Source: Gammaproteobacteria bacterium (GTDB lineage Bacteria > Pseudomonadota > Gammaproteobacteria > Arenicellales > Poriferihabitantaceae). From it: DNA of 64,000 nt. Below are positions 1 to 64,000 of this stretch, piece after piece; position 1 is the stretch's first letter; each line of letters starts with the position of its first letter. The stretch covers positions 6,757-70,756 of the forward strand of contig JAPPPS010000105.1 in the NCBI GenBank assembly GCA_028817405.1. The letters run 5' to 3'. The notes below the pieces were generated by a model. The model saw only the letters and a list, made by a program, of their open reading frames with translations, was not told the origin of the DNA and did no database searches. The translations under genes were made by a program, and so were the position numbers.

Positions 1-33
1 TCGTCGAAGTCGGCCGGCGACAAACCGGTCTCG

Positions 34-846: not shown

Positions 847-876
847 CGCGCCAATCCCCGCGGCCATCCTACCACG

Positions 877-2385: not shown

Positions 2386-2497
2386 TGGATGAGACGGTTC
2401 AACGGCCGCGGATGCAAAAACGGTAGCGGCGACAACAGCGATGACGGTGACGGCAAACCCGGCGACGGTGGCGGCGCAATAATGCAAACCGCGACGG

Positions 2498-3742: not shown

Positions 3743-3743
3743 T

Positions 3744-4655: not shown

Positions 4656-4682
4656 TTTTCGATTGGGTTGATGGGGAAAAAA

Positions 4683-7005: not shown

Positions 7006-8313
7006 TTAGCCGGCCGCGGCGGCCGCGGGCTCGGGCGCGGTTTCATCACGCGCGGCCGGCGACGGTGTCGACATTTTCGGCCGCGACGACGGCATTTCCG
7101 GCGACGGTGCCGGCACCGCCGGCGCCGACACCCAGCGTCGCGAACGCCGGGTGCGGTCGGTGAACTTCCCCGCCAATTGGCCGCAGGCCGCGTCGATGTC
7201 GTCGCCGCGGGTTTTGCGCGTTACCGTGAACAGATTGCGGCCAATGAGAATGTCGCGGAAGCGCTCGACCGCGGCCGGCGACGGGCGACGGTAGTCGATG
7301 TCCGGCGACGGGTTGAACGGAATCAGGTTGATTTTGGCCGGCATGTCGCCGAGTAATTTCGCCAGCGCGCGCGCCTGCGCCGAACTATCGTTGACCCCGG
7401 CTAACAGCACATATTCGAAAGTGATGCGGGTGCGCGGGCGCGCCGCCGCGTACCGGCGGCAGGCCGCGAGCAATTCGGCAATCGGATATTTTTTGTTGAG
7501 CGGCACCAGTTGCTCGCGCAGCGCGTCATCCGGCGCGTGCAACGACACCGCCAAACTGACCGGGCAGGCGGATGCCAAGCGGTCGATGGCCGGCACCAAC
7601 CCCGCGGTGCTGAGCGTGACCCGCCGCTTCGACAAACCGAACGCGCAGTCGTCCAGCATGAGGCGCAGCGCGGCCACCACGGCGTCGAAGTTCAACAGCG
7701 GCTCGCCCATGCCCATGAGGACGATGTTGGTGATGGCGGTTTTGGTTTTGGTTTCGCCGCGGCCGTGGTCACCGTCACCGTCGCCGGGGTCGCCGTCGAC
7801 ACCGTCACCATCGATGTCACGGTCACCGTGGTCGCCGTCGACACCGTCACCATCGATGTCACGGTCGCCCGCCAATTCCCCCGCGGCCACCCACACCTGG
7901 CCGATGATTTCGTCCACCGTCAGGTTGCGGTTGTAGCCGTGCCGGGCGGTGGCGCAGAAGGTGCAGTTCAAGCCGCAGCCGACCTGCGACGACACGCACA
8001 AAGTGCCGCGCCCGGCCTCGGGGATGAACACGGTCTCAACGGCGTTGCCGTCGGCCAGCCGCAGCAGCCATTTGCGCGTGCCGTCCGCGGCCCGCCGGCG
8101 CGCCGCGACCGCGGGGAATTCAATCGCCGCGTCGCGGTTCAGGCGCGCGCGCAGCGCCTTGCTTAAGTCGGTGAACGCGTCCGGCGCGGTGACCCGGCGC
8201 TGGTAAATCCACCGCAGCGCCTGGCCCGCGTGGAATCGCTTCTCGCCCATGCGCGCGAAGAAGTCCTCCAACGCCGCGCGGTCGAGGGCGGCCAAGTTGG
8301 CGGCGGGTTGCAT
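7006..8313 (-). CDS. rlmN: 23S rRNA/tRNA m2A radical-SAM methyltransferase RlmN
   Basis: '[13 protein letters not shown]', the radical SAM '[10 protein letters not shown]' motif, and 'MGMGEPLLN'. Start taken at [11 protein letters not shown] (ATG 8313). Contains a Gly/Asp-rich insert. Confidence 0.93.
7789..7872. repeat. 42-bp tandem duplication inside rlmN (encodes [14 protein letters not shown] x2) within a GTCACC-type tract
   Basis: Unit gtcgccgtcgacaccgtcaccatcgatgtcacggtcaccgtg at 7789-7830. It repeats from 7831 with divergence only at the end of the unit. Confidence 0.9.
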
Positions 8314-8359
8314 GGCGGCGGCGACGGTGGTGGCGGCGAAAACGCGGGCGGCGCGCCGG

Positions 8360-8794
8360 TTAACCTCGGGTGCGCGGGCAAATCTCGTGGTCAGCGAAGA
8401 AAAACGCGATTTCCACGGCCGCGGTCTCGGCCGCATCCGAACCATGCACCGCGTTTTGCTCGACATCCGTGGCGAAGTCGGCGCGAATCGTGCCGGCGGC
8501 CGCGGCCGCCGGGTCGGTCGCCCCCATCACCTCGCGGTTGCGCGCGATGGCGTCCTCGCCTTCCAGCACCTGCGCGACGATGGGGCCGGAGGTCATGAAT
8601 TCAACCAAGTCGGCGTAGAACGGCCGCTCGCGGTGCACCGCGTAAAACTGCTCGGCTTGCTCACGGCTCAGGCGCAGCATGCGCGCCGCGACGATGCGCA
8701 GGCCCGCGTCCTCGAAGCGACGGTAGATTTGGCCGATGACATTTTTCCCGACCGCGTCGGGCTTGATGAGGGACAGCGTGCGCTGGGTCGCCAT
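8360..8794 (-). CDS. ndk: nucleoside diphosphate kinase
   Basis: '[28 protein letters not shown]' and 'NAVHGSD'. ATG at 8794; the longer ORF-track start is rejected. Confidence 0.95.
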
Positions 8795-27856: not shown

Positions 27857-29020
27857 CTACAACAATTTTTTCAGCAGTCCATATTGGTCAGCGTTCGCAT
27901 CGCTTGCATTAACGATGAATAGTCCAAACCCGTTCTTGTCGGCCTCGGCGACAATTTCCGAAATGAAAGTCCGGTCGGCGGCGCCGGCGTTGTTGTCGGC
28001 CAAGAATTGATTAATCTCGGCGTCGCTCATCGCGCTGTGCAAACTCCCCCGCACAACATCCGAAGTCAATCCAACGGCGGTTCGGTGCGGCATGCGTTTG
28101 CCGTTTATCATCAGCGTTTTAATGTTGCAAAACAGCGCTGATTTAATAAACGCGTCTTTGATGTCGATGCGCGACGGCAACCATTTATTTCGGGAGTGTT
28201 TTTTCTCAATCAAGAACACATGGCCAGACACAACGGTGCATTCATCGGCGGTCCAGTTATACAAACCGCCAATCAGGTTTTTCATGGTGACCGTGGCTTT
28301 GCGCGCCACGGTTTTCTCCTTGGGCTGGTCGGTTAAGCGCTCGCGGTTTTGCGCGTTTTCCGCCAACGCGCGCGACAATTGTTTAAATTTTGCGACATCG
28401 TCGGCGATGATTTGGATTCGCTTTTTAATGCCGCCTTCCCCGTGCAGGCGCACCCCGGTACGACGGGCAATATTACGATAGGAATCCAAAGTTAATCGGG
28501 CGATTTCGGACAATTGGTCCATCTGCAACAAATTCCAGTGCAAAGCGCTGGAATGATAATTGCTTAACTCACAAATTTTCTTGTGCACATGTTGGTAGTC
28601 CATGACTTGTTTGGTGATTTTATTTTTACGCGTCTGCCCGGGGCGCGTCGTTTTTTCCGCTTCCACATAATAGCAGGGGATTACATAAACATTCAGCACG
28701 CTCATCAGCGACACCGTGTCCCATTGCAAAAAATCACGGTCGCCGTCCGCGCCTTCATCTTTGCAGAACGGGATGAGAGTGACGCGGTTTTTCATGCGCA
28801 GCGTGTCGTAGACGCGCGCATAAGGAAAGGTGCGCGTCCTTTTAGGGGACAACCATTGGCTGACGGCAAATTTATTGCCGTTGCAATCAAGCAGAAACGC
28901 GCCTTTTGACTTCAGATTGCCCGCAAGCAAGTCGCCCGCCGTATATGATTCCAGTTCGACCGGAATGCGAGGTTCATATGTGACCTCTTGGAGTTCGGCA
29001 AAAATATTGACAAAATTCAT
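27857..29020 (-). CDS. putative restriction endonuclease (unassigned family; candidate PD-(D/E)xK site in the C-terminal half)
   Basis: 387 aa in low-GC sequence. It is the last gene of the M-M-R cassette, 9 nt after the Dam-like gene. Candidate catalytic motif 'WTADECTVVSGHVFLIEKKHS' (D259...E272-x-K274; nt about 28199-28246). I recognised no other family signature. Confidence 0.55.
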   Translation of the reverse strand: MNFVNIFAELQEVTYEPRIPVELESYTAGDLLAGNLKSKGAFLLDCNGNKFAVSQWLSPKRTRTFPYARVYDTLRMKNRVTLIPFCKDEGADGDRDFLQWDTVSLMSVLNVYVIPCYYVEAEKTTRPGQTRKNKITKQVMDYQHVHKKICELSNYHSSALHWNLLQMDQLSEIARLTLDSYRNIARRTGVRLHGEGGIKKRIQIIADDVAKFKQLSRALAENAQNRERLTDQPKEKTVARKATVTMKNLIGGLYNWTADECTVVSGHVFLIEKKHSRNKWLPSRIDIKDAFIKSALFCNIKTLMINGKRMPHRTAVGLTSDVVRGSLHSAMSDAEINQFLADNNAGAADRTFISEIVAEADKNGFGLFIVNASDANADQYGLLKKLL

Positions 29021-29029
29021 ATCGACCTC

Positions 29030-29884
29030 CTATGCGCTTGCAGGCGTTTGGTCCGCCTTTGTCGCATAGTCCCGACTCATGATGAGAACTTCGTTGGAAA
29101 CTTTGCTCGCATTCATGCCGTACGTCCATGTCGGCGTCTTAAACGGATAGCCGTTGTACAGTTCGCGCACCGTCTCGCAGTCGTTATACGACAGTAGCCA
29201 GTTGTCGTGTTGAGACAGCAGTTTGGCGAGGCCTTCATGGTCAAAATCCTGGTGATGGTCGCCGCGCGTGCCGTATAGTTTGGATGCGATGCAGTACGGC
29301 GGGTCCAGGTACAAAAAATCGGCGCGGTGGCGGGGAATGGATTCGCTGAAGTCGGCTTTGGCGACCTGCAGGTTCTGCAACTTAAAATCGCCCAGTCTGT
29401 TGATGCATGCGACGGTAAAACGCGGATGCCCTGGCGACATGCCCCCGGACAAAGTGGTGCCGGAAAAAGAGCAGCGGTTGAGGGCGAAGAACGCGGCCGC
29501 CGATTCGACGGGGTCGGCGATGTCGGAATGCCGTTTCTGCAGGGCGTAAAAGGCGTCCTTTTTCATCGGATAGTATCGCCGCACGGTGTCTGCCAAACCG
29601 GCCGCGTCTTCCAACAGCGTCCGCCAAAAATTAACCAGAGGTTGGAAGGCGTCGTAAGCGAAAACTTCAACGCCGCGCGCGGCCAGCGCCAACTCGACCG
29701 AGCCGCCGCCGATAAACGGCGAGCAGAGTCGCTCAATGCCGGGCGGCAACGCATCGAGAATGCAGTTGACGGCGCGAGATTTGCCGCCCGGATAACGCAA
29801 CGGCGATTTGGCTGTCGCGCGTTCCTGTTCGCCCCATGCAGGCGGCAGCATGGACGATTGTTTAAGCGGGGCGACGCTGTTCAT
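29030..29884 (-). CDS. Dam-like (D12-class, alpha) N6-adenine DNA methyltransferase
   Basis: 'PLRYPGGKSR', motif I 'SPFIGGGSVEL' and motif IV 'FLYLDPPY'. ATG at 29884, with 29851 as an alternative. The ORF-track N-terminal extension to 30058 overlaps the upstream gene and is rejected. Confidence 0.88.
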   Translation of the reverse strand: MNSVAPLKQSSMLPPAWGEQERATAKSPLRYPGGKSRAVNCILDALPPGIERLCSPFIGGGSVELALAARGVEVFAYDAFQPLVNFWRTLLEDAAGLADTVRRYYPMKKDAFYALQKRHSDIADPVESAAAFFALNRCSFSGTTLSGGMSPGHPRFTVACINRLGDFKLQNLQVAKADFSESIPRHRADFLYLDPPYCIASKLYGTRGDHHQDFDHEGLAKLLSQHDNWLLSYNDCETVRELYNGYPFKTPTWTYGMNASKVSNEVLIMSRDYATKADQTPASA

Positions 29885-31025
29885 CTTGTTGTCCGGTTGA
29901 CGGTTTTGTTTGGCCGGCGTGGTTCGCGCAGGAAATGATTTTTGCGGCGTAATCGATGTATTCTTTTTCGGTTTCCATGCCGATATGCCGGCGTCCAAGT
30001 TTTTCCGCCGCCAGATTGGTAACCCCGCTGCCGGCGAAGATATCCAAAACAACGTCATTCATGTAGGAATAATAACGGATGACGCGGCTGGCCAGTTCTT
30101 CAGGGAACGGGCATGGGTGGATATTTTCGCGCGGCGCCACCGGGCGAATATTCCACACATTCTTGCTCTGCTCTTGATAACCGGTCAAGTCCATCCGGTT
30201 CGCGCGCTTTTCAGCCGCCGTTCGGTCATGGTAGATGTTGTTTTTGGATTTTTCACCGGCCGGTTTTTGGAAGACGAAAACATACTCCACGGATAAACTC
30301 GGGTAGTAGTAGCCGGGATAAGGGTGTTGCATGAGAACGCCGCTGCGCTTGTCTTTGACAATGCCCTTTTCCCAGACAATATCTTCCTTGAACTGCCAGC
30401 CCAGTTCCTCCATCCAACAGACAAAATGAAACGGCAACGCCATGCGTTTTCCGCCCCAGGCCACCGGAGAAATGTTGACTACATTGTGTCCGCCGGGTTT
30501 GAGCACGCGATACAACTCTTTGAATCGGTCCACCAGGAACACTTTGTAAAATTGATATGATTGCTCTTTGCGCTCCCAATAGCGCACCTCGCCGCCGAGT
30601 TTTTTAATATGGTCGGCGTAGTTGATGGCGTTGTGGTAAGGCGGCGAAGTGAACGCCAGTATGATGCTGTTGTCGGCAAGCGTTTTTAGCCCGTCCAAAC
30701 AATCGCCGTGGATAAACTCCCCGCGCCCCGCCGAATACGTCTTCAGTTTTTCCCGGGTGGTTCTGAATCGCCCGCCCAACTCCAGCGCGGAAATGATTTG
30801 TAACGCCTTGTTTTTGCCGACTCCGTTAAATTTTGTCAAATCTCCCACGGTAACTTTCGTACCCAGGTTGGCGCGCAGATAATCCACCAACTCCCGGCTC
30901 AAGTTTTTGATGCTGTTATTTTTGGCCCCGGTGCCGAGCAAAACTGAAATCAACTCCTCCGTTGATAACTCGGACGGCGGATTTTCCAGCAGTTTCTCGC
31001 GGGGCTGTTGGGATGCGGAGGTCAT
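29862..31025 (-). CDS. beta-class DNA methyltransferase (SPPY, possibly N4-cytosine) with a RadC-N-terminal-like HhH domain
   Basis: The N-terminal 90 aa, 'PREKLLENPPSELSTEELISVLLGTGAKNNSIKNLSRELV...FNGVGKNKALQIISALELGGRF', resemble the RadC/UPF0758 N-terminal HhH region. Then come motif IV 'LAFTSPPYHNAINY' and motif I 'VVLDIFAGSGVT'. ATG at 31025; the ORF track uses a TTG at 31034. Confidence 0.85.
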   Translation of the reverse strand: MTSASQQPREKLLENPPSELSTEELISVLLGTGAKNNSIKNLSRELVDYLRANLGTKVTVGDLTKFNGVGKNKALQIISALELGGRFRTTREKLKTYSAGRGEFIHGDCLDGLKTLADNSIILAFTSPPYHNAINYADHIKKLGGEVRYWERKEQSYQFYKVFLVDRFKELYRVLKPGGHNVVNISPVAWGGKRMALPFHFVCWMEELGWQFKEDIVWEKGIVKDKRSGVLMQHPYPGYYYPSLSVEYVFVFQKPAGEKSKNNIYHDRTAAEKRANRMDLTGYQEQSKNVWNIRPVAPRENIHPCPFPEELASRVIRYYSYMNDVVLDIFAGSGVTNLAAEKLGRRHIGMETEKEYIDYAAKIISCANHAGQTKPSTGQQDEQRRPA

Positions 31026-33917: not shown

Positions 33918-35366
33918 TTATGCGGCCGCGGTCGCGGTGATGGCCTCCATGGCGCGCAGAAAAACCGCGACTTCATCGGCCGAGTTGTAGTGCGCCAGCG
34001 ACACGCGCACGCAGGTTTCCAAGCCCAGCGGGTCCAGGATGTTGGCGGAAAAATAGTCGTTTTTGCGGGTGTGGACGCGCACCCCGCGGTCGCCGAGTTG
34101 GCGCACCACTGTCGCCGCCGGCGCGCCGTCCACCGCCAGCGACACCAAGCCCTCGCGGCGCGGATTGGCGGCGCCGCCGATGACGGTGACGCCGGGCATG
34201 GTCGCCAAACCGCGCCGCCCGCCGCCGCCGTTCAGCATGCAGTCCACCAGGTGTTTTTCATGCGCGGCGATGGCGCGGCCGGCGGCGACGATGCGCGCGC
34301 GGCGGCTCGCCGCGGCGGCGTCGACTTGCCCGCCCAACCAGTCGAGGTAATCCACCACCGCGCTGAAACTGGCGTACGCCGCGGCGTCGCGGGTGCCGAG
34401 TTCCCAGAAGTCGTCCGCGGTGCCGTCGAGATGCTCGTGCGGCGCGCGACTCAAGCGCGGCGACAACCACGCGAAACCGTAGTTGTGGCGCGAAAAAACC
34501 TTGTAGCCGGAGACCGCGTACGCGTCCGCGTCGATGCCGGCGGCCGCGACCCCGCCGTGCGGCGCGTGCTGGATGCCGTCGACGATGATGAAACACTCCG
34601 GCGATGCCGCGCGAATTTCCGCCGCCACCGCCGCGACATCCACCGCCATGCCGCTCACCGGGCTGGTGTGGATGACGGTGGCGACCCGGGTGTCGGCGAA
34701 ACCGTCGCCCAAGCGCGCGCGGTAGGCGGCGGCGTCGACGCTGCCGGTGCGCGGGTCGTGGGCGACGGCGGTGTAGCGCGCGCCGACATGCGCGGCCCAG
34801 CGGCGGGCCGCGCTGGCGGTGGCCGGGTGTTCCAGGGTGGAGCCGAGGACTTGCCATTTTTTGCCGTGCTCACCGTCGCGGCCCCGGCCCCGGTCGCGGG
34901 CGGCGGCGGCCAACACCGCGGCGCGGATGACCCGGAACAAACATTCGGTGCCGGATTCGCCGACGAAGATGACACCGTCGCCGGGGTCACCGTCACCGCC
35001 CCCGCTTAACGGACTGCGGGGGTGACGAGGGGGGGCATCACCGCCCCCGCTTAACGGACTGCGGGGGTGACGAGGGGGAGCATCACCGTCACCATCACCG
35101 TCACCGTCGCCGCCGACACCGAGGAAAGTCGCCATATCGGCCCGCCCGCGCGCAATCAACCGCCCCATTTCGGCCGAGGCCGGGTTGTCGCGCCCTTGGT
35201 TATCCGGAATCGCCGCCAACTTTGCCGCGACCTCGACCACCGATTTCAGCGTCAGCGAGCCGCCGGCGTTCTCGAAGAAAATCCGCGGGCCCTGGTACGG
35301 ACAACGCTCGACATGATGAAACCGCGCGCGAATTTCCTGCAGCAACTGGGCGTCGAACGCGCTCAT
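33918..35366 (-). CDS. class-V aminotransferase-fold PLP enzyme, cysteine desulfurase/desulfinase-like
   Basis: 'FFENAGGSLTLKSVVE' and the PLP-lysine region 'SGYKVF'. The ATG at 35366 overlaps the tctA TGA (ATGA). Interrupted in frame by the palindromic element at 34981-35110. Confidence 0.8.
   Translation of the reverse strand: MSAFDAQLLQEIRARFHHVERCPYQGPRIFFENAGGSLTLKSVVEVAAKLAAIPDNQGRDNPASAEMGRLIARGRADMATFLGVGGDGDGDGDGDAPPRHPRSPLSGGGDAPPRHPRSPLSGGGDGDPGDGVIFVGESGTECLFRVIRAAVLAAAARDRGRGRDGEHGKKWQVLGSTLEHPATASAARRWAAHVGARYTAVAHDPRTGSVDAAAYRARLGDGFADTRVATVIHTSPVSGMAVDVAAVAAEIRAASPECFIIVDGIQHAPHGGVAAAGIDADAYAVSGYKVFSRHNYGFAWLSPRLSRAPHEHLDGTADDFWELGTRDAAAYASFSAVVDYLDWLGGQVDAAAASRRARIVAAGRAIAAHEKHLVDCMLNGGGGRRGLATMPGVTVIGGAANPRREGLVSLAVDGAPAATVVRQLGDRGVRVHTRKNDYFSANILDPLGLETCVRVSLAHYNSADEVAVFLRAMEAITATAAA
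34999..35078 (+). repeat. two tandem 45-bp copies of the palindromic element CCCCCGCTTAACGGACTGCGGGGG-TGACGAGGGGG
   Basis: Identical hairpins at 34999-35022 and 35044-35067 (7-bp GC stems, 10-nt loop). Each is followed by TGACGAGGGGG and flanked by GTCACC arrays. Read in frame on the minus strand as DAPPRHPRSPLSGGG x2. Confidence 0.9.
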
Positions 35367-36871
35367 GCGGGGCCGGCCCCGCCCGCGGATTTTTTGAAGA
35401 ACGCGCGGTAGATGCTGGCGAACAATGTGATGAAGCCGGCGATGAGAAGAACCAACGCAATCGGCCGGCCGATGAATCCGCTCCATTCAAAATGCAACAT
35501 CTGCATCGCCTGGGCGAAGGTTTGCTCGCCGATTTTGCCGAGAATTAAACCGAGCACGATGCCGGCCACCGAGTAACCGGAGCGGCGCAAAAAGAATCCG
35601 ACCACGCCGGCCACGAACATGGCGATGATGTCGACGGTCAGGCCGCGCACCGCGTACGCGCCGACCGTCGCCAACAACAAAATCAACGGCGCGAGAAACT
35701 GAAACGGCACCCGAAGGAGGTTGATGATGGTGCGCGTCTCCAAATAGCCGATGAGGAGAATCGACAGGTTGGCGAAGAACATCGCGGCGAACACCACCCA
35801 CACCAAGTCGGCGCTGTTGAGGAACACCAGCGGGCCCGGCTCCATGTCGTGCATCTGAAACACGCCGACCATCATCGCGGTCAGCGCGCCGCCGGGCAAG
35901 CCCAGCGCGAGAAGCGGAATCATGGCCGCGCCGGTGGCCGCGTTGTTGGCGGTCTCGGAGGCGATGACGCCTTCCATTTTGCCGCGCCCGAACTCGCGGC
36001 GGTTGCGCGACCAACGCACCGCTTCGTTGTAGCCCATGAACGCGGCCAAAGTGGCGCCGATGCCGGGCAGGATGCCGCAGAAAAAACCGATGAAGATGGA
36101 GCGGATGATGGCGATTTTGTGCGCGACCAACTCGGCAAGCGTGGGGAAGTCGACGCTCATCTTCGGCGCGCGGTAGACGCCGCGCGCTTTCTTTTCCGCC
36201 TGAATGAAAATCTCCGAGACCGCGAAGAAGCCGAGGATGGTGGGGATGAAATGAATCCCCGCGAGCAGATACGGCATGTTGAAATCATACCGCGCGATGC
36301 CGCCGACCGGGTCCAAGCCGACCACGGCGATGGTTAGCCCCGCGAGAATCGACAGCCAGCCTTTCCAAAAAGTCTTCGCGCCCACCGACGCCGCCACCGC
36401 CAAGCCGAAGAACACCAGCGCGAAAATCTCCGGCGGGCCGAACGCGGAAATCGCCCACGCGGCAATCGGCGCGGTCGCGGCCATCATCACCACGGCCGAC
36501 AAACAGCCGCCGATGGCCGAGCACATGACCGCGGCCCCGACCGCTTTGCCGGCGCGGCCGTTCTGCGTCATCGGATAACCGTCGAACGCGGTCGGGGCGT
36601 TTTCCGGCGCGCCGGGAATGTTGAACAAAATCGCGGTGATGGCGCCGCCGTAGACGCCGGTGCAGTAAATCACCGAGAACAGCATAATGCCGTGCTCGGC
36701 CGACAGATGCGCGGTGAACGGAAGGAGAATCGCGGCCAAGGTGAGCATGCTCACCCCGGGAATCGCGCCGAACAGCATGCCGCCGATGACGCCGCCGAGG
36801 AACACCAACACGCCGACCGGGTCGCTGAACAACGCGACCGTGCCGCCGATGAAGTTGGAGAAGGTTTCCAT
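35363..36871 (-). CDS. tctA: tripartite tricarboxylate transporter large permease TctA
   Basis: 502 aa, polytopic. 'FGAIPGVSMLTLAAILLP' and 'FNIPGAPENAPTAFDGYPM', typical of the TctA/DUF112 family. Confidence 0.9.
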   Translation of the reverse strand: METFSNFIGGTVALFSDPVGVLVFLGGVIGGMLFGAIPGVSMLTLAAILLPFTAHLSAEHGIMLFSVIYCTGVYGGAITAILFNIPGAPENAPTAFDGYPMTQNGRAGKAVGAAVMCSAIGGCLSAVVMMAATAPIAAWAISAFGPPEIFALVFFGLAVAASVGAKTFWKGWLSILAGLTIAVVGLDPVGGIARYDFNMPYLLAGIHFIPTILGFFAVSEIFIQAEKKARGVYRAPKMSVDFPTLAELVAHKIAIIRSIFIGFFCGILPGIGATLAAFMGYNEAVRWSRNRREFGRGKMEGVIASETANNAATGAAMIPLLALGLPGGALTAMMVGVFQMHDMEPGPLVFLNSADLVWVVFAAMFFANLSILLIGYLETRTIINLLRVPFQFLAPLILLLATVGAYAVRGLTVDIIAMFVAGVVGFFLRRSGYSVAGIVLGLILGKIGEQTFAQAMQMLHFEWSGFIGRPIALVLLIAGFITLFASIYRAFFKKSAGGAGPA

Positions 36872-36887: not shown

Positions 36888-37661
36888 TTATTGCAGAATC
36901 GTTACCAAGCCGGTACCGATTTCATAAAACGGACTCACATTGCCGGTCGGCAAGCCGACATACAACACGCTGACGAACAGCAGCAGCAGCACGCCGAGAA
37001 TCACCGCGGCCACCAACGCCATCGGGCCGCCGCGCCGCTCGCCCAACAAAAACATCACCGCCAGAATAAAAAACGGCGCCAGCGCATAAAAGCCGAAGTC
37101 CTGCATGAACGCGGCGAACAACACCGGCAACGCCAACATCGCGCCGACGCGGTTGGCGCGCGCGCCGAGCAAGTAAAGCGCGATGACGGCGGCGGCGGTG
37201 GTTAACTTGACGGTGTGCAGCGCGCCGCTTTGCTCGGCCGTCAACCAACCCGGCAGCAACAGATACAAAAACGGTAGCGCGAGAATGCCGAAGGTCGAGG
37301 CGTACCATTTAACGCCGGCCATGCCGTCCGCGCCGGTGTGATGCGATTCACGCGCCGCGGTCTCGGCGCCGTCATCCGAGGCCGCCGCCAACATATCGCG
37401 CGCGCGCGCGGCGGTTTCACCGTCGCCACCGTCACCGTCACCGTCACCATCGCCGCCGCGCCGGTCGACTTTCCAGTGATAAAGCAGTTGCCCGACCGCG
37501 GCCACGGCAATCAACAGCAGCACCGCGCGCGGCCACGCCGAGGCGCCGAACCGGTAGATTTCGATTGCCTTGTCGAAACGAAACGAATAGGCGTACAACA
37601 ACCCGGCCAACGCCAGCCACAGCGCGGCCTCGACCAGATGACCGGTTTTTAAGTTGCCCAT
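36888..37661 (-). CDS. tctB: TctB-like small permease, enlarged by a hydrophilic Gly/Asp-rich insert
   Basis: Lies between tctC and tctA and has multiple TM helices. ATG at 37661. Insert '[24 protein letters not shown]...HHTGADG' at nt about 37325-37469. Confidence 0.7.
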   Translation of the reverse strand: MGNLKTGHLVEAALWLALAGLLYAYSFRFDKAIEIYRFGASAWPRAVLLLIAVAAVGQLLYHWKVDRRGGDGDGDGDGGDGETAARARDMLAAASDDGAETAARESHHTGADGMAGVKWYASTFGILALPFLYLLLPGWLTAEQSGALHTVKLTTAAAVIALYLLGARANRVGAMLALPVLFAAFMQDFGFYALAPFFILAVMFLLGERRGGPMALVAAVILGVLLLLFVSVLYVGLPTGNVSPFYEIGTGLVTILQ

Positions 37662-37749
37662 GGTGTTGATGCGGCGAGTATCGCAACGCCACCGCCGCGG
37701 TTGCAATAACAACGCGCGGCGATGGCGGGATTCAATTCAAACGACGCTG

Positions 37750-44416: not shown

Positions 44417-44500
44417 GGCGACGGTGATGGTGACGGTGACGGTGGCGGTGACGGCGATGCCCCCCTCGTCACCCCCGCAGTCAGTTAAGCGGGGGCGGGG
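44417..44500 (-). repeat. intergenic composite: GGTGAC/GGCGAT array plus one inverted copy of the palindromic element
   Basis: Array at 44417-44460. CCCCCTCGTCA follows at 44461-44471, then the hairpin cccccgcagtcagttaagcggggg at 44472-44495. This matches the reverse complement of the 34999 copy with 1 loop mismatch. Confidence 0.9.
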
Positions 44501-44502
44501 AT

Positions 44503-45435
44503 TTAAGCGGGAACGCCGGCGCGGCTATCGACGGTGTCGACGCTGCCGGCGTGGTGGTGTTCGGCGCCGGCACGGTTGTGTTCGGCGACGGTGGCGGCGC
44601 AATCATCGACAAAAACATCGGCGAAAACATCCGGGCGACGGTGCGACAAACTCGGCAACTGCGCGCGGATGTTGGCCACGCGGCGGTCGTCGATGTCGGC
44701 GAAAACCACGCCGGGGCCAGCCGCGCGCTCGGCAAGCACCTCGCCCCACGGGTCGATGACGACGCTGTGGCCGTAGGTGACGCGCCCGTTGGAATGCGCG
44801 CCGACTTGCGCCGGCGCGATGACATAACAGGCGTTTTCAATCGCGCGCGCGCGCAACAGCGTCTCCCAATGCGCGCGCCCGGTCAGCGCCGTGAACGCCG
44901 ACGGTACCAACAGTACGGTCGCGCCGGCCGCGGCCAAGCGGCGGTACAGTTCCGGGAATCGCAGGTCGTAGCAGACGCTCAAACCCAACACCCCGGCCGG
45001 GCTGGCTTGGGTCACGCAGGCGCGGCCCGGCATGGTGTAGTCGGATTCGTGGTGCTGTTCGCCGTCCTTCAAGTCGATGTCGAACAGGTGGATTTTGTCG
45101 TATCGGGCGCGGCAGTCACCGTGGTCGTCAAACACCAACAGCGCGTTGCACACTCGCGACGCATCGGCGCTGCGCAGCGGCACGCTGCCGGCGATGAGCC
45201 ACAAGCCGGACTCGCGCGCTAACCGCCGCATGAAATCTTGAATCGCGCCGCCGCCGAAGTCCTCCGCGCAGGCGCGCAGTTGGCGTTTGTCGCGCGCCAT
45301 TAGCGCGAAGCATTCCGGCAACGCCGCCAGCGTCGCGCCGCCGGTTTTGGCGGCATCGACCAACTCGGCGGCCGCGTCCAGGTTGCGCGCGATGTCATCG
45401 CCGGAGGTGGTTTGCAGCGCGGCGATGCGGGTCAT
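44503..45435 (-). CDS. carbon-nitrogen hydrolase (nitrilase superfamily, Nit/omega-amidase-like)
   Basis: 'RIAALQ', 'LPECF' Glu, 'YDKIHLFD' Lys region and '[12 protein letters not shown]' Cys. Confidence 0.88.
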
Positions 45436-45537: not shown

Positions 45538-46137
45538 TCAAAGCGCATAAAACACATGCTTGCCAATCATCACCAGCGCCGGGATGTTCTTGCTCCAAAA
45601 CGGCTGCACATCGACCGTGTGGTAGTGCGTCGCCTCGCTGACCAGCGCCAGGCGCGCGCCGCCCAAAAACAACTGGGCGATGTTCATGGCGCGCCGCCAC
45701 GCCTGCGCGTCGTCGATGACATGGTGGCGCGAGTGCAGCAGCGTCCAACTGAACTGCTTGCGCTGCCACACCACCTGGCACACGCTGTTCGGATACCGCG
45801 GACTGCGCAGACGGTTCATGGTCACGGCCGCAATCGCGGCCTGGCCGCGCGCCGATTCGCCGCGGCCCTCGTGGTAGATATTCATCGCCAGGCAGACCAA
45901 ATCGCGCTGCTGCGAGAGGATGAGAGAGGCCGGGGCGGCGACGGCCGAGACTCTCGAATTGCTCGCGGCCGCGGTGGATGCGGTGACGGTGGCGGCGCTG
46001 CCGGCCGCGTGGGCGGTCACGGTCAAACCGCTCCCCGAGGCGAAAATCAGCGCGCCGGCCGCGCCGATGAGAGCCGCCTGCGCGGCCGAACGCAAGCGTC
46101 GGCGGCGCAGTGACGGCGCGGTTCGTGGGAATGTCAT
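45538..46137 (-). CDS. SleB/CwlJ-family cell wall hydrolase, secreted
   Basis: 'NIYHEGRGESARGQAAIAAVTMNRL..YPNSVCQVVWQRKQFSW'. Arg-rich signal 'RRRRLRSAAQAALIGAAGALIFA'. ATG at 46137. Confidence 0.85.
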   Translation of the reverse strand: MTFPRTAPSLRRRRLRSAAQAALIGAAGALIFASGSGLTVTAHAAGSAATVTASTAAASNSRVSAVAAPASLILSQQRDLVCLAMNIYHEGRGESARGQAAIAAVTMNRLRSPRYPNSVCQVVWQRKQFSWTLLHSRHHVIDDAQAWRRAMNIAQLFLGGARLALVSEATHYHTVDVQPFWSKNIPALVMIGKHVFYAL

Positions 46138-46240
46138 GATGAAACGTCTCGTTGGTGGGCGCGCAAGGTGAAGCGAATCGCGGTTGCGCCGGTTGGAAAA
46201 CGCGCACCATACCCGCAACCGGCGCGCAATGCAAATCCGA

Positions 46241-46343
46241 TGGCGATGGCGGTGACGGTGATGACGGTGGTGACGGTGATGACGGTGGTGACGGTGATGA
46301 CGGTGCTGGCGGCGATGACGGTGATGACGGTGCTGGCGGCGAC
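46241..46343 (+). repeat. intergenic nested tandem array of GGTGAC/GGTGAT units
   Basis: gtgacggtgatgacggtg (18 bp) occurs three times at 46252-46305. It is followed by ctggcggcgatgacggtgatgacggtg (27 bp) and a partial second copy. Confidence 0.9.
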
Positions 46344-46401
46344 CAAATCCGGAATCCGCCGCGCCGACGGTGACCCGCGGCCGCGCGCGCGGAATCGAGA
46401 A

Positions 46402-53873: not shown

Positions 53874-55195
53874 GTTACGAAGCCATCGCCATCTTGATGT
53901 TCGCGTCGATGCTGCTGTTGCTGCTGACCGGGCAGCGCGTGTTCGCCGCCATCGGTTTTGTGTCCGCGGCCGCGGCGCTGTTGTTGTACGGCGAAGGCGC
54001 GGTGGAGATGCCGTTCAACGCCGCGTTCAAACTGTTCAACTGGTATCCGGTGCTGACCCTGCCGCTGTTTATTTACATGGGTTACATCCTGTCCGAGTCC
54101 GGCATCGCCAACGATTTATACCGCATGTTTCATGTGTGGTTCGGCGGACTCAAAGGCGGCTTGGCGGTCGGCACCATCGGATTGATGGTGGTCATCTCGG
54201 CGATGAACGGTTTGAGCGTCGCCGGCATGGCCATCGGCGCCACCATCGCGCTGCCGGAAATGCTGCGGCGCGGTTATGACAAGGTGATGATTACCGGCGT
54301 GGTGCAGGCCGGCAGTTCGCTGGGGATTCTGGTGCCGCCCAGCGTGGTGCTGGTTTTATACGGCATGATTGCGCGCCAGCCGGTCGGCCAACTGTGGCTG
54401 GCCGGCGCGCTGCCCGGTTTGATGATGGCGCTGCTGTTCATCATTTATATCGTGGTGCGATGCAAAGCGCAGCCGCATCTCGGACCCACGGTGGCGCGCG
54501 AAGAATTAACCATGCCGCTCGGCGAGAAACTGAAACTGCTGCGCGCCGGCATCATTCCGTTTTTGATTTTCTTCTTCATGACCGGCTTGTTCGTCATGGG
54601 CATCACCAGTTTGGTCGAGAGTTCCGCGGTCGGCGCCACCGCGGCCACGCTCGCGGCGCTGGCGAAGCGCCGGCTGACGCGCAAAGTCATGGAAGAGACC
54701 ATGCGCAAGACGCTCGGCATCTCGTGCATGTTCATGTGGATTATCCTCGCCGCGCTGTGTTTCGGCGCGGTGTTCGACGGCATCGGCGCGGTGCGCGCGA
54801 TTGAGTCGCTGTTCATCACCAAGTGGGATTTGAGTCCGTGGGAAGTGCTGATTATGATGCAGTTGTCGTATCTGTTCATGGGCATGTTCCTTGACGACAC
54901 CGCGATGTTGGTCATCGTCGCGCCGTTGTATGTGCCGCTGGTGATTACGCTCGGATTCGACCCGATTTGGTACGGCGTGTTGTATACCATCACCTGCCAA
55001 ATCGCGTATATGACGCCGCCGTTCGGCTATAATCTGTTCTTGATGCGCGCGATGGCGCCGAAGGAAATTCAGTTGGCGGACATCTACCGCTCGATTATAC
55101 CGTTCGTGTTGGTCATGGTATGCGCGCTGATTTTGGTCATGGCGTTCCCGCCCATCGCGTTGTGGTTGCCGGAGTTGGTTTACAGCAAAGGTTGA
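53870..55195 (+). CDS. TRAP transporter large permease (DctM family)
   Basis: 441 aa, polytopic, with typical DctM segments 'GLSVAGMAIGATIALPEM' and 'VIVAPLYVP'. Confidence 0.9.
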   Translation: MSYEAIAILMFASMLLLLLTGQRVFAAIGFVSAAAALLLYGEGAVEMPFNAAFKLFNWYPVLTLPLFIYMGYILSESGIANDLYRMFHVWFGGLKGGLAVGTIGLMVVISAMNGLSVAGMAIGATIALPEMLRRGYDKVMITGVVQAGSSLGILVPPSVVLVLYGMIARQPVGQLWLAGALPGLMMALLFIIYIVVRCKAQPHLGPTVAREELTMPLGEKLKLLRAGIIPFLIFFFMTGLFVMGITSLVESSAVGATAATLAALAKRRLTRKVMEETMRKTLGISCMFMWIILAALCFGAVFDGIGAVRAIESLFITKWDLSPWEVLIMMQLSYLFMGMFLDDTAMLVIVAPLYVPLVITLGFDPIWYGVLYTITCQIAYMTPPFGYNLFLMRAMAPKEIQLADIYRSIIPFVLVMVCALILVMAFPPIALWLPELVYSKG

Positions 55196-55200
55196 ACGCC

Positions 55201-55262
55201 GTCACCGTCACTTTCACCGTCACCGTCACTTTCACCGTCGCCGTCGCCGCCATCATCGTCAT
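55201..55262 (+). repeat. intergenic GTCACC-type array between the TRAP permease and binding-protein genes
   Basis: gtcaccgtcactttcacc (18 bp) occurs at 55201-55218 and 55219-55236. A degenerate gtcgccgtcgccgccatcatcgtcatc follows. Confidence 0.9.
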
Positions 55263-55304
55263 CGAACAGTTCAACTTTGTCTCACCATTCACCGGAGAAT
55301 CGTC

Positions 55305-56384
55305 ATGAAACCCAATCGAAGCAACGCCGATGCGGTCGCAAACCAGCGCCGCGACTTCATCAAAAAAGCCGGCGCCGGCAGCGCCGGCATCCTCGCGGCC
55401 GCGACCGCGCCGTACGCGTATTCCGCGACCAATCCCATCCGATGGCGGCTGCAAACTTACTCCGGCGCGCCGCTCGGCGCGCATGTCATCAAGCCGCAAA
55501 TCGAGGCCTTCAACCGCGCCGCGCACGGTCAGATGGAAATCGATTTGTACTACGCCGACCAATTGGTGCCGACCGATGAGTTGTTCCGCGCCATGCAAAA
55601 CGGCACCATCGATGCGGTGCAGAGCGACGATGCGACCATGGCGTCGCCGGTCGACATCAATGTGTTCGGCGGCTACTTTCCGTTCTCGACCCGATACAGC
55701 CTCGACCTGCCGGTGCTGTTCAAGTATTACGGCATGGACGAAATCTGGGCCGAAGCGTACGGCGAAGTCAGGGGCGTGGAATGGTTGGGCGCCGGCGCCT
55801 GGGACCCGTGTCACATCTTCACCAAGAAACCCATTCGCAGCATCAAAGACATGAGCGGCAAGCGCGTGTTCGGCGTGCCGACCGCCGGGCGGTTCTTGTC
55901 GCGGTACGGTTTGGTACCGGTGACGCTGCCGTGGGATGATGTCGAAGTCGCGCTGCAAACCGGCGAGTTGGACGGCGTCGCGTGGTGCGGATTCACCGAA
56001 GCGTACGAAGTCGGCTGGGCCGATGTATGCGACTACGCGCTTCTCAACAATGTCACCGGCGCATGGTGCGGTTCGTATTTCGCCAACACCCGCAGTTGGG
56101 AGGCGGTGCCGCCGCACTTGCAGGAGTTGTTCAAGTTGTCGATGGACAGTTCGCACTACTACCGCCAAGTGTGGTATTGGGGCGGCGAAGCCAAACTGCG
56201 CGCCGAGGGCAAGAAGATGGAACTGACCACGATTCCCGCCAACGAGTGGGAGCAAGTGGTCAAGGACGCGGAAGCGTTCTGGGATGAAATCGCCTCCATC
56301 AGCCCGCGCGCGGCCCGCGTGGTGCAGATTTTTAAGGACTACACCGCGGTGATGGAACAAGTCGGCGTGCCGTATCGATATTGA
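55305..56384 (+). CDS. TRAP transporter substrate-binding protein with a Tat signal
   Basis: 'RRDFIKKAGAGSAGILAAATAPYAYS' twin-arginine signal. DctP-type fold adjacent to the Q and M genes. Confidence 0.85.
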   Translation: MKPNRSNADAVANQRRDFIKKAGAGSAGILAAATAPYAYSATNPIRWRLQTYSGAPLGAHVIKPQIEAFNRAAHGQMEIDLYYADQLVPTDELFRAMQNGTIDAVQSDDATMASPVDINVFGGYFPFSTRYSLDLPVLFKYYGMDEIWAEAYGEVRGVEWLGAGAWDPCHIFTKKPIRSIKDMSGKRVFGVPTAGRFLSRYGLVPVTLPWDDVEVALQTGELDGVAWCGFTEAYEVGWADVCDYALLNNVTGAWCGSYFANTRSWEAVPPHLQELFKLSMDSSHYYRQVWYWGGEAKLRAEGKKMELTTIPANEWEQVVKDAEAFWDEIASISPRAARVVQIFKDYTAVMEQVGVPYRY

Positions 56385-56415: not shown

Positions 56416-57171
56416 TTACAACCGTCGCAGTCGGTACACTTTTTCGTTCAACGAATCCAGGCCGCGGTCGGCGAGGTTGCCGACGATGTCGGGGCCGGAT
56501 GACTGGGTGATGATGTCGATGGCGAAGTCGGCGGCGAACAACCGTCGCACTTCCGCTTCCGGCACCGAGAACGGGGGGCCTTTCATTTGGCGCTCATCGT
56601 AGTCCATGCTGATGAGAAAGACTTGCGCGCGCGGTTGCAGCAGCGCGGCGAGATGCGCGGCGTAGTCGCCGCGCATCGGTTGCGGCAGCGCAATCAACGC
56701 GGCGCGGTCGTAAACCAAGCGCGCGCGCTCCAAGTCGCCGGGTCGCAAGTCAAACCAATCGCCGCACCATAACTCGATGTCGATGCCGGTGCTTTCGATG
56801 TTGCCGTCACCGTCGTCACCGTCGCCCCCGCTTAACAGAACGCGGGGGTGACGGGGATGAGTGTCGTCGCCACCGTCGCCAACATAACGCGCAAACCGCG
56901 CACCGTCGATAACTTCATAACGCAACCCGTTCTCGGCGAAGAAGTCGCGGCAGGCGACGGCGCTGACTTCCACGCCGATGACATGGTGGCCGGCACGCGC
57001 CAACCACAGCAGGTCCAGCGACTTGCCGCATAACGGCGCCAACACCGTCGCGCCTGGTTCCGCCTCCGCCGCAAACGCGCGCCAGAATTTCTTCAGCCGC
57101 GAGTTAACCTTGACTTGATGAAACCCCAGCCGCCGCTCGGCCCACCGTTGATGCCAGAAGTCGATGTCCAT
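56416..57171 (-). CDS. tpm: thiopurine S-methyltransferase (Tpm) carrying an in-frame palindromic-element insert
   Basis: 'FWHQRWAERRLGFHQ', 'VLAPLCGKSLDLLWLARAGHHVIGVEVS'. Insert 'DDTHPRHPRVLLSGGDGDDGDG'. Confidence 0.88.
   Translation of the reverse strand: MDIDFWHQRWAERRLGFHQVKVNSRLKKFWRAFAAEAEPGATVLAPLCGKSLDLLWLARAGHHVIGVEVSAVACRDFFAENGLRYEVIDGARFARYVGDGGDDTHPRHPRVLLSGGDGDDGDGNIESTGIDIELWCGDWFDLRPGDLERARLVYDRAALIALPQPMRGDYAAHLAALLQPRAQVFLISMDYDERQMKGPPFSVPEAEVRRLFAADFAIDIITQSSGPDIVGNLADRGLDSLNEKVYRLRRL
56801..56880 (+). repeat. palindromic element copy (cccccgcttaacagaacgcggggg-TGACGGGGA) with a flanking GTCACC array, inside tpm
   Basis: Hairpin at 56825-56848 with the same 7-bp stems as the 34999 copy; the loop differs at 3 positions. 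Preceded by gtcaccgtcgtcaccgtcg. Confidence 0.9.
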
Positions 57172-63727: not shown

Positions 63728-64000
63728 CGAGTCACGGTGTTGCGGCCGGTACCGTCACGGTCACGGTCACGGTCACCGTCACCGGCATCGTCACCGGCAC
63801 CGCGGTCACCACCGTCACCACCGTCACCGACATCGCCACCGTCACCGGCATCGACATCGCCGGCGACACCGTCACCGTCATCACAACCATCGCCGCGGCC
63901 GGCATCTTCGCCGAGTCCACCGTCACCGTCGCCCCCACCCGCATCCAACCACCGCCCGATATCCTCGACGCTGCCGACCACCGCGCTCGCGCCCCAGTCG
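63724..64000 (-). CDS. 3' end of an unidentified upstream gene (panB/folK position) with a Gly/Asp-rich tail of about 75 aa
   Basis: The frame stays open to the window edge (...DWGASAVVGSVEDIGRWLDAGGGDGDG...). Its TGA overlaps the panC ATG (ATGA at 63724-63727). The tail is encoded by a GTCACC array at 63735-63960. Confidence 0.5.
   Translation of the reverse strand, partial: DWGASAVVGSVEDIGRWLDAGGGDGDGGLGEDAGRGDGCDDGDGVAGDVDAGDGGDVGDGGDGGDRGAGDDAGDGDRDRDRDGTGRNTVTR

Follow-up and report, generated by a model that had tools for sequence, protein, structure and literature searches.

A palindromic hairpin repeat translated in frame within conserved enzyme genes of an uncultured gammaproteobacterial lineage

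How does a pair of identical DNA hairpins come to be translated inside a conserved enzyme gene? The question is raised by a stretch of 64,000 nucleotides, hereafter the window, from a Gammaproteobacteria bacterium assigned to the Poriferihabitantaceae (Arenicellales; assembly GCA_028817405.1, contig JAPPPS010000105.1, positions 6,757 to 70,756 of the forward strand), in which the gene of a pyridoxal phosphate (PLP) enzyme is read straight through two tandem copies of a palindromic element and through the GTCACC hexamer arrays that bracket them. A preliminary description of this DNA had proposed that the palindromes belong to an apparently undescribed family, analogous to the Rickettsia palindromic elements (RPEs), which inserted in frame into the gene and can still duplicate locally. 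The comparison of the window with related contigs (designated L001, L002 and so on) leads to the view that the element probably represents a lineage-specific, ~39-bp palindromic repeat family, similar to the repetitive extragenic palindromes (REPs) and either selfish or neutral for its host.

With regard to the PLP gene, the hairpins, their coordinates, the 45-bp period, the tails, the GTCACC brackets and the in-frame read-through are exactly as first described (Table 1). Both units contain the 24-nt hairpin CCCCCGCTTAACGGACTGCGGGGG, which can be written CCCCCGC-TTAACGGACT-GCGGGGG, each time followed by the tail TGACGAGGGGG, and Tandem Repeats Finder reports a 45-bp unit present in 2.1 copies at 34993-35088 (98% matches, score 185). 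On the strand of the gene, unit 1 is translated as DAPPRHPRSPLSGGG, and the single base by which unit 2 differs from it, an A in place of a G in the G-run, is synonymous in this frame. The open reading frame (ORF) spans positions 33918 to 35486 of the minus strand, the methionine at 35366 being the probable true start, and it is uninterrupted through both units and the arrays, i.e. over a segment of 50 aa. The GTCACC-type hexamers next to the pair lie at 34986-34997, within the left run, and at 35082-35111; the right array shares its first hexamer with unit 2, whose final 6 bp it forms, and the length of this array is polymorphic among strains. The enzyme matches Pfam PF00266 (Aminotran_5, E = 9e-19), and its S-x-Y-K-V-F-S motif is invariant across an alignment of 23 orthologues. 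Besides, the gene is free of internal stop codons in all 7 strains examined, with a dN/dS of ~0.3 (0.29-0.31) in comparison with relatives at 78-80% identity, and of 0.4-0.9 among the closest strains.

The translated segment is an insertion and not an ancestral part of the protein, as indicated by the alignment of orthologues and by an empty site in a related contig. For a total of 4861 homologues of the PLP enzyme, the typical orthologue length is 416-425 aa, and all orthologues at or below 80% identity in the alignment of 23 are devoid of the segment, ..FLG(V/A) being joined directly to G-x-G-(V/I)-x-(V/I)-GE(S/T)GTE; the same peptide was not found in any of them. The closest empty site, that of L012 (80% identity), reads GGC GTG GGC GAT GGC ATC and contains a native Gly-Asp-Gly. 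Two exceptional orthologues carry other short inserts in the same loop, which is thereby recognised as permissive. In the AlphaFold model of the enzyme (predicted template modelling score, pTM, of 0.80), residues 88-128 are modelled as coil with a predicted local distance difference test (pLDDT) value below 50, and this insert, predicted to be disordered, sits between a helix (62-82) and a strand (132-136) of an otherwise confident fold. A second variable repeat site of the same gene, which contains no hairpin, is missing in more distant orthologues and has a pLDDT below 50 at residues 162-167. In the same line, the gene of a thiopurine S-methyltransferase (TPMT) elsewhere in the window has its Pfam match split into two stretches by an insert, which falls between contiguous residues 81 and 82 of the Pseudomonas syringae TPMT (1pjz), and it is missing from TPMT orthologues of ~220 aa, two of which are 78% identical over aligned positions. 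Both inserts are thus in-frame additions lacking in orthologues, and they lie in loops that are either variable or disordered, that of the PLP enzyme in a low-confidence coil.

In the light of these data, it is scarcely credible that there is no element at all, whether because the segment was ancestral and lost elsewhere or because it is an assembly artefact or chimera. Tandem repeats are easily misassembled from short metagenomic reads, but within the window this DNA recurs in two genes unrelated to each other as well as between genes, it is found in multiple assembly sources and samples, and orthologues without the segment exist. Moreover, the two-unit PLP allele is base-for-base identical over the extracted region in L002 and L003, which derive from two different samples, so that it is not an artefact of one assembly.

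The proposal that the palindromes belong to a dispersed family is borne out by further copies inside and outside the window. Allowing at most 3 mismatches, the 24-mer is matched 4 times in the window, where 100 shuffles give an expectation of 0.00, and these matches correspond to 4 units at 3 loci: the PLP gene, the TPMT gene and the interval between a C-N hydrolase gene and tldD. Two of these three loci are genic, in what is a small sample. Altogether, 24 distinct units were collected from the window and 10 related loci, and at least 8 distinct loci carry the hairpin. In L001 (RKSH01000015.1, a Gammaproteobacteria metagenome-assembled genome, MAG), the gene of an FGGY kinase takes its stop codon from a reverse-oriented element, and in L012 the PLP gene has a unit at its 3' end, placed exactly on its stop codon; neither of these two units has flanking hexamers. 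In L009, no fewer than 5 units lie between genes within 400 bp, spaced by GTCACC/ATCACC arrays, and L010 contains an inverted pair of units in intergenic DNA upstream of a gene, inverted pairs being found only in L009 and L010. The 35-bp core of the TPMT copy recurs with 100% identity at a non-homologous locus, that of L010, where the flanks are unrelated and the identity ends at the core edges. Such an identical core at unrelated loci reflects the dispersal of a defined sequence and not a convergent origin. As a separate observation, a second motif, GTCACAGTTAATTAGACGCGTCACC, is present twice inside the hairpin/array cluster of L009 (reverse strand, ~920-945 and ~1100-1125), and no copy of it within 2 mismatches was found in the window.

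Table 1. Positions in the window of the host genes, palindromic units and hexamer arrays
Feature	Position	Strand	Details
PLP enzyme gene (host gene 1)	33918..35366	minus	class-V aminotransferase / cysteine-desulfurase-like PLP enzyme, 482 aa
Second variable repeat site of the PLP gene, hairpin-free	34871..34900 (approximate)	plus	RDRGRGRDGE; alignment columns 240-270
Left hexamer run of the PLP gene, ACCGTCGCCGGGGTCACCGTCACC	34974..34997	plus	GDGDPGDG on the PLP gene strand; hexamer number varies by strain
PLP unit 1, 45 bp	34998..35042	plus	hairpin 34999-35022; GC-CCCCGC / TTAACGGACT / GCGGGG-G, then TGACGAGGGGGGGC, then hexamer ATCACC
PLP unit 2, 45 bp	35043..35087	plus	tandem copy, hairpin 35044-35067
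Right hexamer array of the PLP gene	35082..35111	plus	ATCACC GTCACC ATCACC GTCACC GTCGCC; 10 aa on the PLP gene strand
Hexamer array, 6 units	44417..44452	minus	from the intergenic unit to the tldD ATG at 44416
Intergenic unit	44456..44500	minus	hairpin 44472-44495, 1 mismatch; between the C-N hydrolase gene and tldD
Putative partial copy, CCCGCTTAA	44503..44511	minus	8 nt upstream of the intergenic unit; its TAA is the C-N hydrolase stop (..GVPA*)
TPMT host gene	56416..57171	minus	thiopurine S-methyltransferase, 251 aa; Pfam PF05724, E = 9e-62
Hexamer run left of the TPMT unit	56805..56824	plus	further GTCGCC/ACCGTC hexamers after the unit, ~56863-56880
TPMT unit, subfamily B	56824..56868	plus	hairpin 56825-56848, loop CAGAAC, tail GGGGATGAGTGT; in frame, translated THPRHPRVLLSGG

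The family is narrowly distributed and lineage-specific. Its DNA is present in assemblies from ENA, JGI, Logan and NCBI, obtained from different samples, and an exact-pattern scan of 185,579 species-representative genomes gave a single match, L001. Two patterns run against the JGI contig collection gave no match, this collection being evidently devoid of the short element-bearing contigs (L009-L011). At the protein level, a HMMER search with the 50-aa peptide of the window against 1.84 billion cluster representatives gave 5 matches, of which 3 are true (P0124, P0125 and P0121); the other two, P0123 and P0126, are unrelated repeat proteins and were rejected as family members, and the source contig of P0125 was not found. 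A profile built from synthetic two-unit rows recovered only P0121 and P0122 from a database of 5.8 billion proteins, the window's own protein being missed, probably owing to low-complexity filtering; this result led to L009 and L010. Finally, no Rfam family reached its gathering threshold anywhere in the window, the matches around the element being of chance level only, and full-text literature searching returned no description of the hairpin element, which fits the earlier suspicion that it is undescribed.

Concerning the anatomy of the element, 20 of the 24 distinct units could be aligned without gaps through the core and share one layout: a flanking hexamer, GC, the stem CCCCGC, the loop TTAA(C/A)NGANN, the stem GCGGGG, GTGACG, (A/G)GG, ~8 variable bases and the next hexamer. 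The core of ~39 bp and one hexamer (6 bp) add up to 45 bp, or 15 codons, and the 24-nt hairpin falls within the 20-40 bp of REP palindromes. The 7 stem pairs are formed in 140 of 140 cells of this alignment, the changes in the stem being one compensatory replacement of C-G by G-C, in L010, and one C-to-T change that retains a wobble pair. TTAA is invariant and GTGACG nearly so, with a single base changed among the 20 units; the variable parts are the tail and the loop's 3' half. Two subfamilies are distinguished, A (loop CGGACT, tail GAGGGGGGGCAT) in the PLP gene and near tldD, and B (loop C(A/G)GAAC, tail GGGGATG..) in the TPMT gene and L010, the latter being the one to which the shared 35-bp core belongs. 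With an in-phase GTCACC as left hexamer, the stem extends over a 3-nt bulge by 5 bp (CGTCA/TGACG), from 7 to 12 bp. The folding energy of the hairpin is only modestly better than that of shuffles (z from -1.2 to -3.0 in one set of folds, and from -0.3 to -3.0 over all), which is no surprise at a G+C content of ~68%, and was not relied on for the hairpin claim. Read in reverse orientation, the unit begins CGTC-A-CCCCCGC, with CGTC directly 5' of the stem. This terminal tag can be read in CGTCACCCCCGC, which is GCGGGGGTGACG reverse-complemented; of the 20 aligned units, 19 have it and one has the variant CGACAC.

The sequence of the unit also limits the frames in which it can be translated. In a six-frame translation made by hand, 2 of the 6 frames are open, the other four being stopped by the TAA of the palindromic TTAA, which is found on each strand, or by TGA. 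Of the two open frames, the one on the reverse strand reads (Gly-Asp)n..APPRHPRSPLSGG.., and the one on the forward strand (His-Arg)n followed by 14 aa. Both genic insertions are in the Gly-Asp frame, with a core reading ..PPRHPRSPLSGG..; the TPMT unit, which agrees with the PLP units both in frame and in its orientation towards the host gene, reads ..GDGGDDTHPRHPRVLLSGGDGDDGDG.. In three other cases, the element or a fragment of it supplies a stop codon, namely that of the PLP gene in L012, of the FGGY kinase gene in L001 and of the C-N hydrolase gene of the window, the last one through the putative partial copy CCCGCTTAA: this 9-mer alone could be due to chance, and its adjacency to a full unit is suggestive.

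Some features of the surroundings of the intergenic unit can be added at this stage. The 3' end of the C-N hydrolase gene (44545-44631) contains tandem repeats with periods of 21 bp and 12 bp, the Pfam domain stopping at residue 257 of 310, and the C-terminal tail of the protein seems to be built of repeat DNA ending in an element-derived stop codon. On the other side, the hexamer array abuts the tldD start codon at 44416, no Shine-Dalgarno-like sequence is found in the last 40 nt, and the nearest purine-rich run, ~45 nt upstream of this start, is the unit's own GAGGGGGG.

The location at gene ends bears on the idea that the element is a selected functional module, which would act either as an RNA 3'-end stabiliser or terminator, or as a Pro/Arg-rich peptide (PxxPxxP within PRHPRSP) combined with Gly-Asp linkers, for instance in the role of a flexible linker or of an interaction motif in a bacterium associated with a host. 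As is typical of REPs (PMC3733652), several copies sit directly at the 3' ends of genes. Conservation of the stem is complete, and the peptide core RHPR..LSGG is kept in all translated variants; conservation of the hairpin at the DNA level, however, makes the conservation of the peptide automatic. Besides, the hosts are cytoplasmic housekeeping enzymes in which the insert is predicted to be disordered, the copy number varies freely among near-identical strains, and the hairpin has neither a following T-run nor a match in Rfam. A selected function of this kind is consequently regarded as very unlikely.

The capacity of the element to duplicate locally, as initially suggested, is supported by the comparison of strains at both genic loci. 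The PLP gene contains one unit in L004, L005, L006 and L008, with varied hexamer numbers, and two units in the window, L002 and L003; five PLP proteins that are 95-97% identical over aligned positions, all with the unit, have lengths of 456, 464, 464, 468 and 477 aa, compared to 482 aa in the window. The dS among these strains is 0.017-0.055, and such low values imply that the unit duplication and the hexamer changes are recent. Likewise, the existence of one-unit strains at 95-97% identity identifies the second PLP unit as a recent tandem duplication. The TPMT gene contains one unit in the window, two in L011 (94-97% DNA identity) and five in L013, again with a 45-bp period, which, judged from the sequences, arose independently at this locus. 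The TPMT copies of L013 carry private point mutations, and through one of them a canonical stem pair is reduced to a T-G wobble. P0129 (78% identity) contains at least 4 units with arrays between them, and P0125 three tandem units of a third variant. The whole thereby shows the features of a coding minisatellite or variable number tandem repeat (VNTR), with head-to-tail copies, a period divisible by 3 and polymorphism among strains. Tandem copies resemble one another more than they resemble copies elsewhere and always belong to the subfamily of their locus, which speaks against repeated insertion and in favour of slipped-strand mispairing, or of unequal exchange, between the hexamers on either side. 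Direct repeats flanking hairpins have an established role in replication slippage.

The hexamers deserve attention in their own right. The 12-mer GTCACCGTCACC has 40 matches in the window at no more than 1 mismatch, compared to 0.27 expected, and arrays are found beyond the hairpin loci, mostly in the Gly-Asp frame, in the TctB, RlmN and BamB genes and elsewhere, other Asp/Gly-rich tandem repeats interrupting RlmN and PanC. The genic units of the window are flanked by arrays on both sides, and the unit near tldD on one side only. In L007 (78% identity), the PLP site is occupied by arrays of both orientations without the CCCCGCTTAA core; at 5060-5178 of this contig, GTGACGGTGA-GCG-TCACCGTCAC forms a perfect 10-bp hairpin made of hexamers alone, in opposite orientations, which implies that the arrays themselves can invert. 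The claim of a real hairpin element family inserted in frame is thus upheld with a qualification, since the element appears as one manifestation of a wider burden of in-frame repeats that encode Gly/Asp throughout the genome of this lineage.

This abundance would suit a scenario of array-mediated homologous recombination or gene conversion, in which arrays would first be generated by slippage at Gly-Asp codons and the core would then be copied from one array into another, no transposase being involved. The 40 matches of the 12-mer, the arrays in hairpin-free genes such as TctB, RlmN and PanC, the hairpin-free arrays at the PLP site of L007, and the arrays on both sides of the core at the two genic loci of the window and on one side near tldD would all be accounted for. 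Against this, the arrays are short (12-36 bp) and imperfect, and would therefore make poor RecA-dependent substrates, array-free units exist in L001 and L012, and the identity of dispersed copies stops at the core edges. Gene conversion is for these reasons considered rather unlikely as the main explanation.

The same arrays could alternatively be targets. In a scenario of array-targeted transposition, the unit would be a non-autonomous element moved by an enzyme acting in trans (a REP-associated tyrosine transposase, RAYT, or IS200-like Y1 transposase, or another nuclease) into GTCACC/GGTGAC, i.e. Gly-Asp codons, and the hexamer arrays would represent accumulated target duplications or excision footprints. 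Units of the window lineage are indeed always inside hexamer arrays, unit-free arrays being commoner, the native empty site already reads G-D-G, and the identical 35-bp core is found at non-homologous loci with different flanks. The conserved TTAA of the loop and the stem-adjacent GTGACG may suggest sequence-specific recognition, and, in reverse orientation, CGTC directly precedes the stem at the start of all units but one, which recalls the CGTC-tagged REPs (PMC3733652). On the other hand, no transposase gene was found among the ORFs of the window that were scanned, the units of L001 and L012 have no flanking hexamers, the tandem copies of a locus belong to one subfamily and point to local duplication, hexamer numbers vary among near-identical strains as microsatellite slippage predicts, and the CGTC REPs have no known dedicated transposase (PMC3733652). 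Transposition of this type is accordingly judged unlikely. The stronger statement that the family is actively mobile by a new type of mechanism, targets GGTGAC/GTCACC, leaves or seeds the arrays and builds translated minisatellites in housekeeping enzymes, is similarly doubtful.

The reading preferred here, that of a lineage-specific REP-like repeat, can be formulated as follows. The canonical unit (GC-CCCCGC / TTAA(C/A)NGANN / GCGGGG-GTGACG(R)GG plus ~8 variable bases) resides within the (GTCACC)n microsatellites of the lineage, and its usual niche would be gene ends and intergenic DNA, where the palindromic TTAA can act as a stop codon. Selection would remove copies inserted in other frames or in structured regions, and the surviving genic copies would be neutral or slightly deleterious passengers in disordered or variable loops. 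Once inside a gene, the core plus one hexamer behaves as a coding minisatellite, with 1-5 copies across close strains, which would be amplified by slipped-strand mispairing or unequal recombination of the flanking hexamers, probably with the help of the hairpin, the hexamer arrays themselves expanding and contracting too. The arrival at a new locus could depend either on an enzyme provided in trans or on recombination between hexamer arrays.

Several points nevertheless weigh against this reading or restrict its reach. The copy number and the genic:intergenic ratio rest on 64 kb of the genome and ~100 kb of related contigs, and the frame argument on two independent genic sites. The counts of 2-5 tandem copies are taken from short-read metagenome assemblies, which are prone to miscounting tandem repeats, the two-unit state recurring in two samples. 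As regards the hairpin, 22 of 500 shuffles match the observed covariation, and the conservation of the stem could reflect recent common descent instead of selection. The dN/dS of 0.4-0.9 among close strains amounts to relaxed selection on the host gene, so that the neutrality of the insert is not proven. In addition, no transposase, RAYT or Y1 gene was found among the 39 ORFs of the window that were scanned, all of which are housekeeping genes, or in the Pfam annotation of the L002 gene calls flanking the PLP gene, and no target-site duplication other than the hexamers could be defined at the core edges.

How does the element compare with known systems? It is treated here as an analogue of the Rickettsia palindromic elements, the likeness being one of behaviour, rather than as a member of them. 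Like RPE-1, RPE-4 and RPE-6, it is an interspersed hairpin repeat found both in intergenic DNA and in frame in housekeeping genes, at positions tolerated by the fold, and probably in a host-associated bacterium; the record title of the L001 MAG ('PNGst') may point to an association with sponges. RPE-1 has a length of ~100-150 bp, against a core of ~39 bp here. Unlike the present units, which belong to a gammaproteobacterium, the RPEs are found in Alphaproteobacteria, no sign of a sequence relationship with them having emerged, although no RPE consensus was compared, and they have not been reported in hexamer microsatellites or as 45-bp head-to-tail arrays of 1-5 copies depending on the strain. 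The analogy drawn initially thus holds for behaviour, but in-frame palindromic repeats are not confined to Rickettsia (PMC3733652), and the unit is more similar to REPs than to RPE-1.

REPs were described by Di Nocera, De Gregorio and Rocco (2013) as G+C-rich palindromes of 20-40 bp located mostly downstream of, or close to, the 3' ends of ORFs (PMC3733652). Their termini sometimes supply stop codons, some of them lie wholly within ORFs in several species and phyla, and in Thauera and R. conorii there are intragenic clusters that code for 43-82 aa (PMC3733652). The same authors equated RPE-4 and RPE-6 with CGTC-tagged REPs and noted that proteins bearing RPE-1 are expressed (PMC3733652). The present unit shares with the CGTC-tagged REPs the CGTC motif directly 5' of the stem in reverse orientation; their tag is described as 'unpaired', whereas the tag can here pair with the flanking GTCACC hexamer. 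In the CGTC families 1-4, the stem measures 8-9 bp and opens with two A/T positions, the loop has 4-5 nt, the tail is CCA, and dimers are mainly head-to-head, head-to-tail ones being negligible (PMC3733652). In contrast, the unit has a 7-bp all-G/C stem, a 10-nt loop with TTAA, and a tail of GTGACG and a G-run without CCA, and head-to-tail tandems predominate. An association with RAYT transposases was shown for the GTAG REPs only (PMC3733652). Taken together, these data indicate that the element appears to fit no defined RPE or CGTC REP family and is an analogue, possibly a distant relative, of these repeats.

Other classes share one feature or another with the element. One MITE (miniature inverted-repeat transposable element) with an internal minisatellite, known in P. 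gingivalis (PMC4596501), similarly combines a small non-autonomous repeat with a strain-variable tandem repeat. In-frame MITE insertions invite the same comparison. In the present case, however, the whole element is the repeat unit, it is translated and it is shorter than a typical MITE; furthermore, no terminal inverted repeats beyond the central hairpin, no consistent target-site duplication and no related or parent insertion sequence were found in any locus examined. With bacterial coding VNTRs, the element has in common periods (45 bp and 6 bp) that are multiples of three, in-frame variation and a low-complexity disordered segment; it differs from them in that the unit is not derived from the host gene and is an interspersed palindrome shared with unrelated loci. 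Three candidate identities were rejected: an integron attC site, of which GCTTAAC fits the RYYYAAC inverse core but for which no separate GTTRRRY partner was seen on inspection; an intrinsic terminator, as no T-run follows the hairpin; and a phase-variation (contingency) locus, all periods being multiples of 3, with no frameshift switching.

Besides the hairpin loci, several repeats of other kinds were observed in the window. The PanC gene (pantoate-beta-alanine ligase, 62693-63754, minus strand) contains an in-frame insert of ~75 aa rich in Asp, Gly and Pro (..GGDGGDGGGGGDIDGSVDPGPDSGVGPGALDSAATIDPGPGALDS..), with direct repeats (family D7) ~90 bp apart at 63196-63335 and 63370-63421 as well as GCCACC/GTCGCC arrays, and its Pfam match spans 334 residues for a profile of 268 positions. 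Directly upstream of the panC region, at the edge of the window (63754-63935), lies an imperfect GTCACC/GTCACG/ATCGCC array of ~180 bp. In the RlmN-like gene (7006-8526, minus strand), a 42-bp tandem repeat at 7774-7866 (2.2 copies, 94% identity) encodes 14 aa twice and then GDGDGD, inside the radical-SAM domain and beside a GTCACC array. The gene of a TctB-like membrane protein (36888-37712, minus strand) contains (GTCACC)4 at 37425-37448, which encodes 12 aa, and the lengths of the called TctB proteins are 257, 255, 257, 239 and 235 aa in L002, L004, L006, L007 and L012, respectively. At 55201-55248, where the ORF of a DctP-like solute-binding protein (55131-56384, plus strand) has its 5' end, 8 GTCACC/TTCACC hexamers form an array that lies in the other open frame and reads RHRHFHRHRHFHRRRR; it may precede the true start codon of this ORF. 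Finally, tandem repeats with periods of 9 bp and 27 bp (TGACGGTGA, 8.9 copies of the 9-bp unit) occupy 46253-46342, at or upstream of the 5' end of a cell-wall hydrolase gene (45538-46401, minus strand).

Two larger differences between strains were also recorded. A cassette of low G+C content (0.54-0.57 against ~0.67 in the flanks) lies at ~27857-31025, between the genes of pyruvate dehydrogenase E1 and E2, and contains two DNA methyltransferase genes (N6_N4_Mtase and MethyltransfD12) as well as a 387-aa ORF without a Pfam match. It is present in L002, L003 and L004 and absent in L005, in which E2 directly follows E1, and is probably a mobile, restriction-modification-like insertion. In L004, positions 1-5496 hold Cas1 and two Csx12-family ORFs (1356 and 268 aa) upstream of TauE/Tct genes, in the place that tldD, pmbA and the gene of an M48 peptidase occupy in the window and in L002; this is a strain-level replacement of a block by a CRISPR-Cas locus.

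As to what the element means for the biology of these bacteria, palindromic repeats of this class were already known, this member being apparently undescribed. It offers a clean case, backed by polymorphism, of a palindromic repeat translated in conserved enzymes outside Rickettsia, in which empty, single-copy and multi-copy alleles are all present in natural strains, and it opens in a new lineage the questions of REP and RPE spread, of protein tolerance and of co-option. What distinguishes it is the embedding in a hexamer microsatellite, the head-to-tail amplification by 45 bp to 1-5 translated copies, and the uncultured, G+C-rich gammaproteobacterial host. On the practical side, such inserts inflate protein length and can mislead the annotation and strain typing of MAGs. 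If the element were actively mobile, a selfish hairpin would systematically enlarge and diversify protein loops across the proteome. More generally, the link between hairpin and microsatellite, together with the load of Gly/Asp repeats, suggests unusual replication or repair, or relaxed selection, in an uncultured and probably host-associated bacterium.

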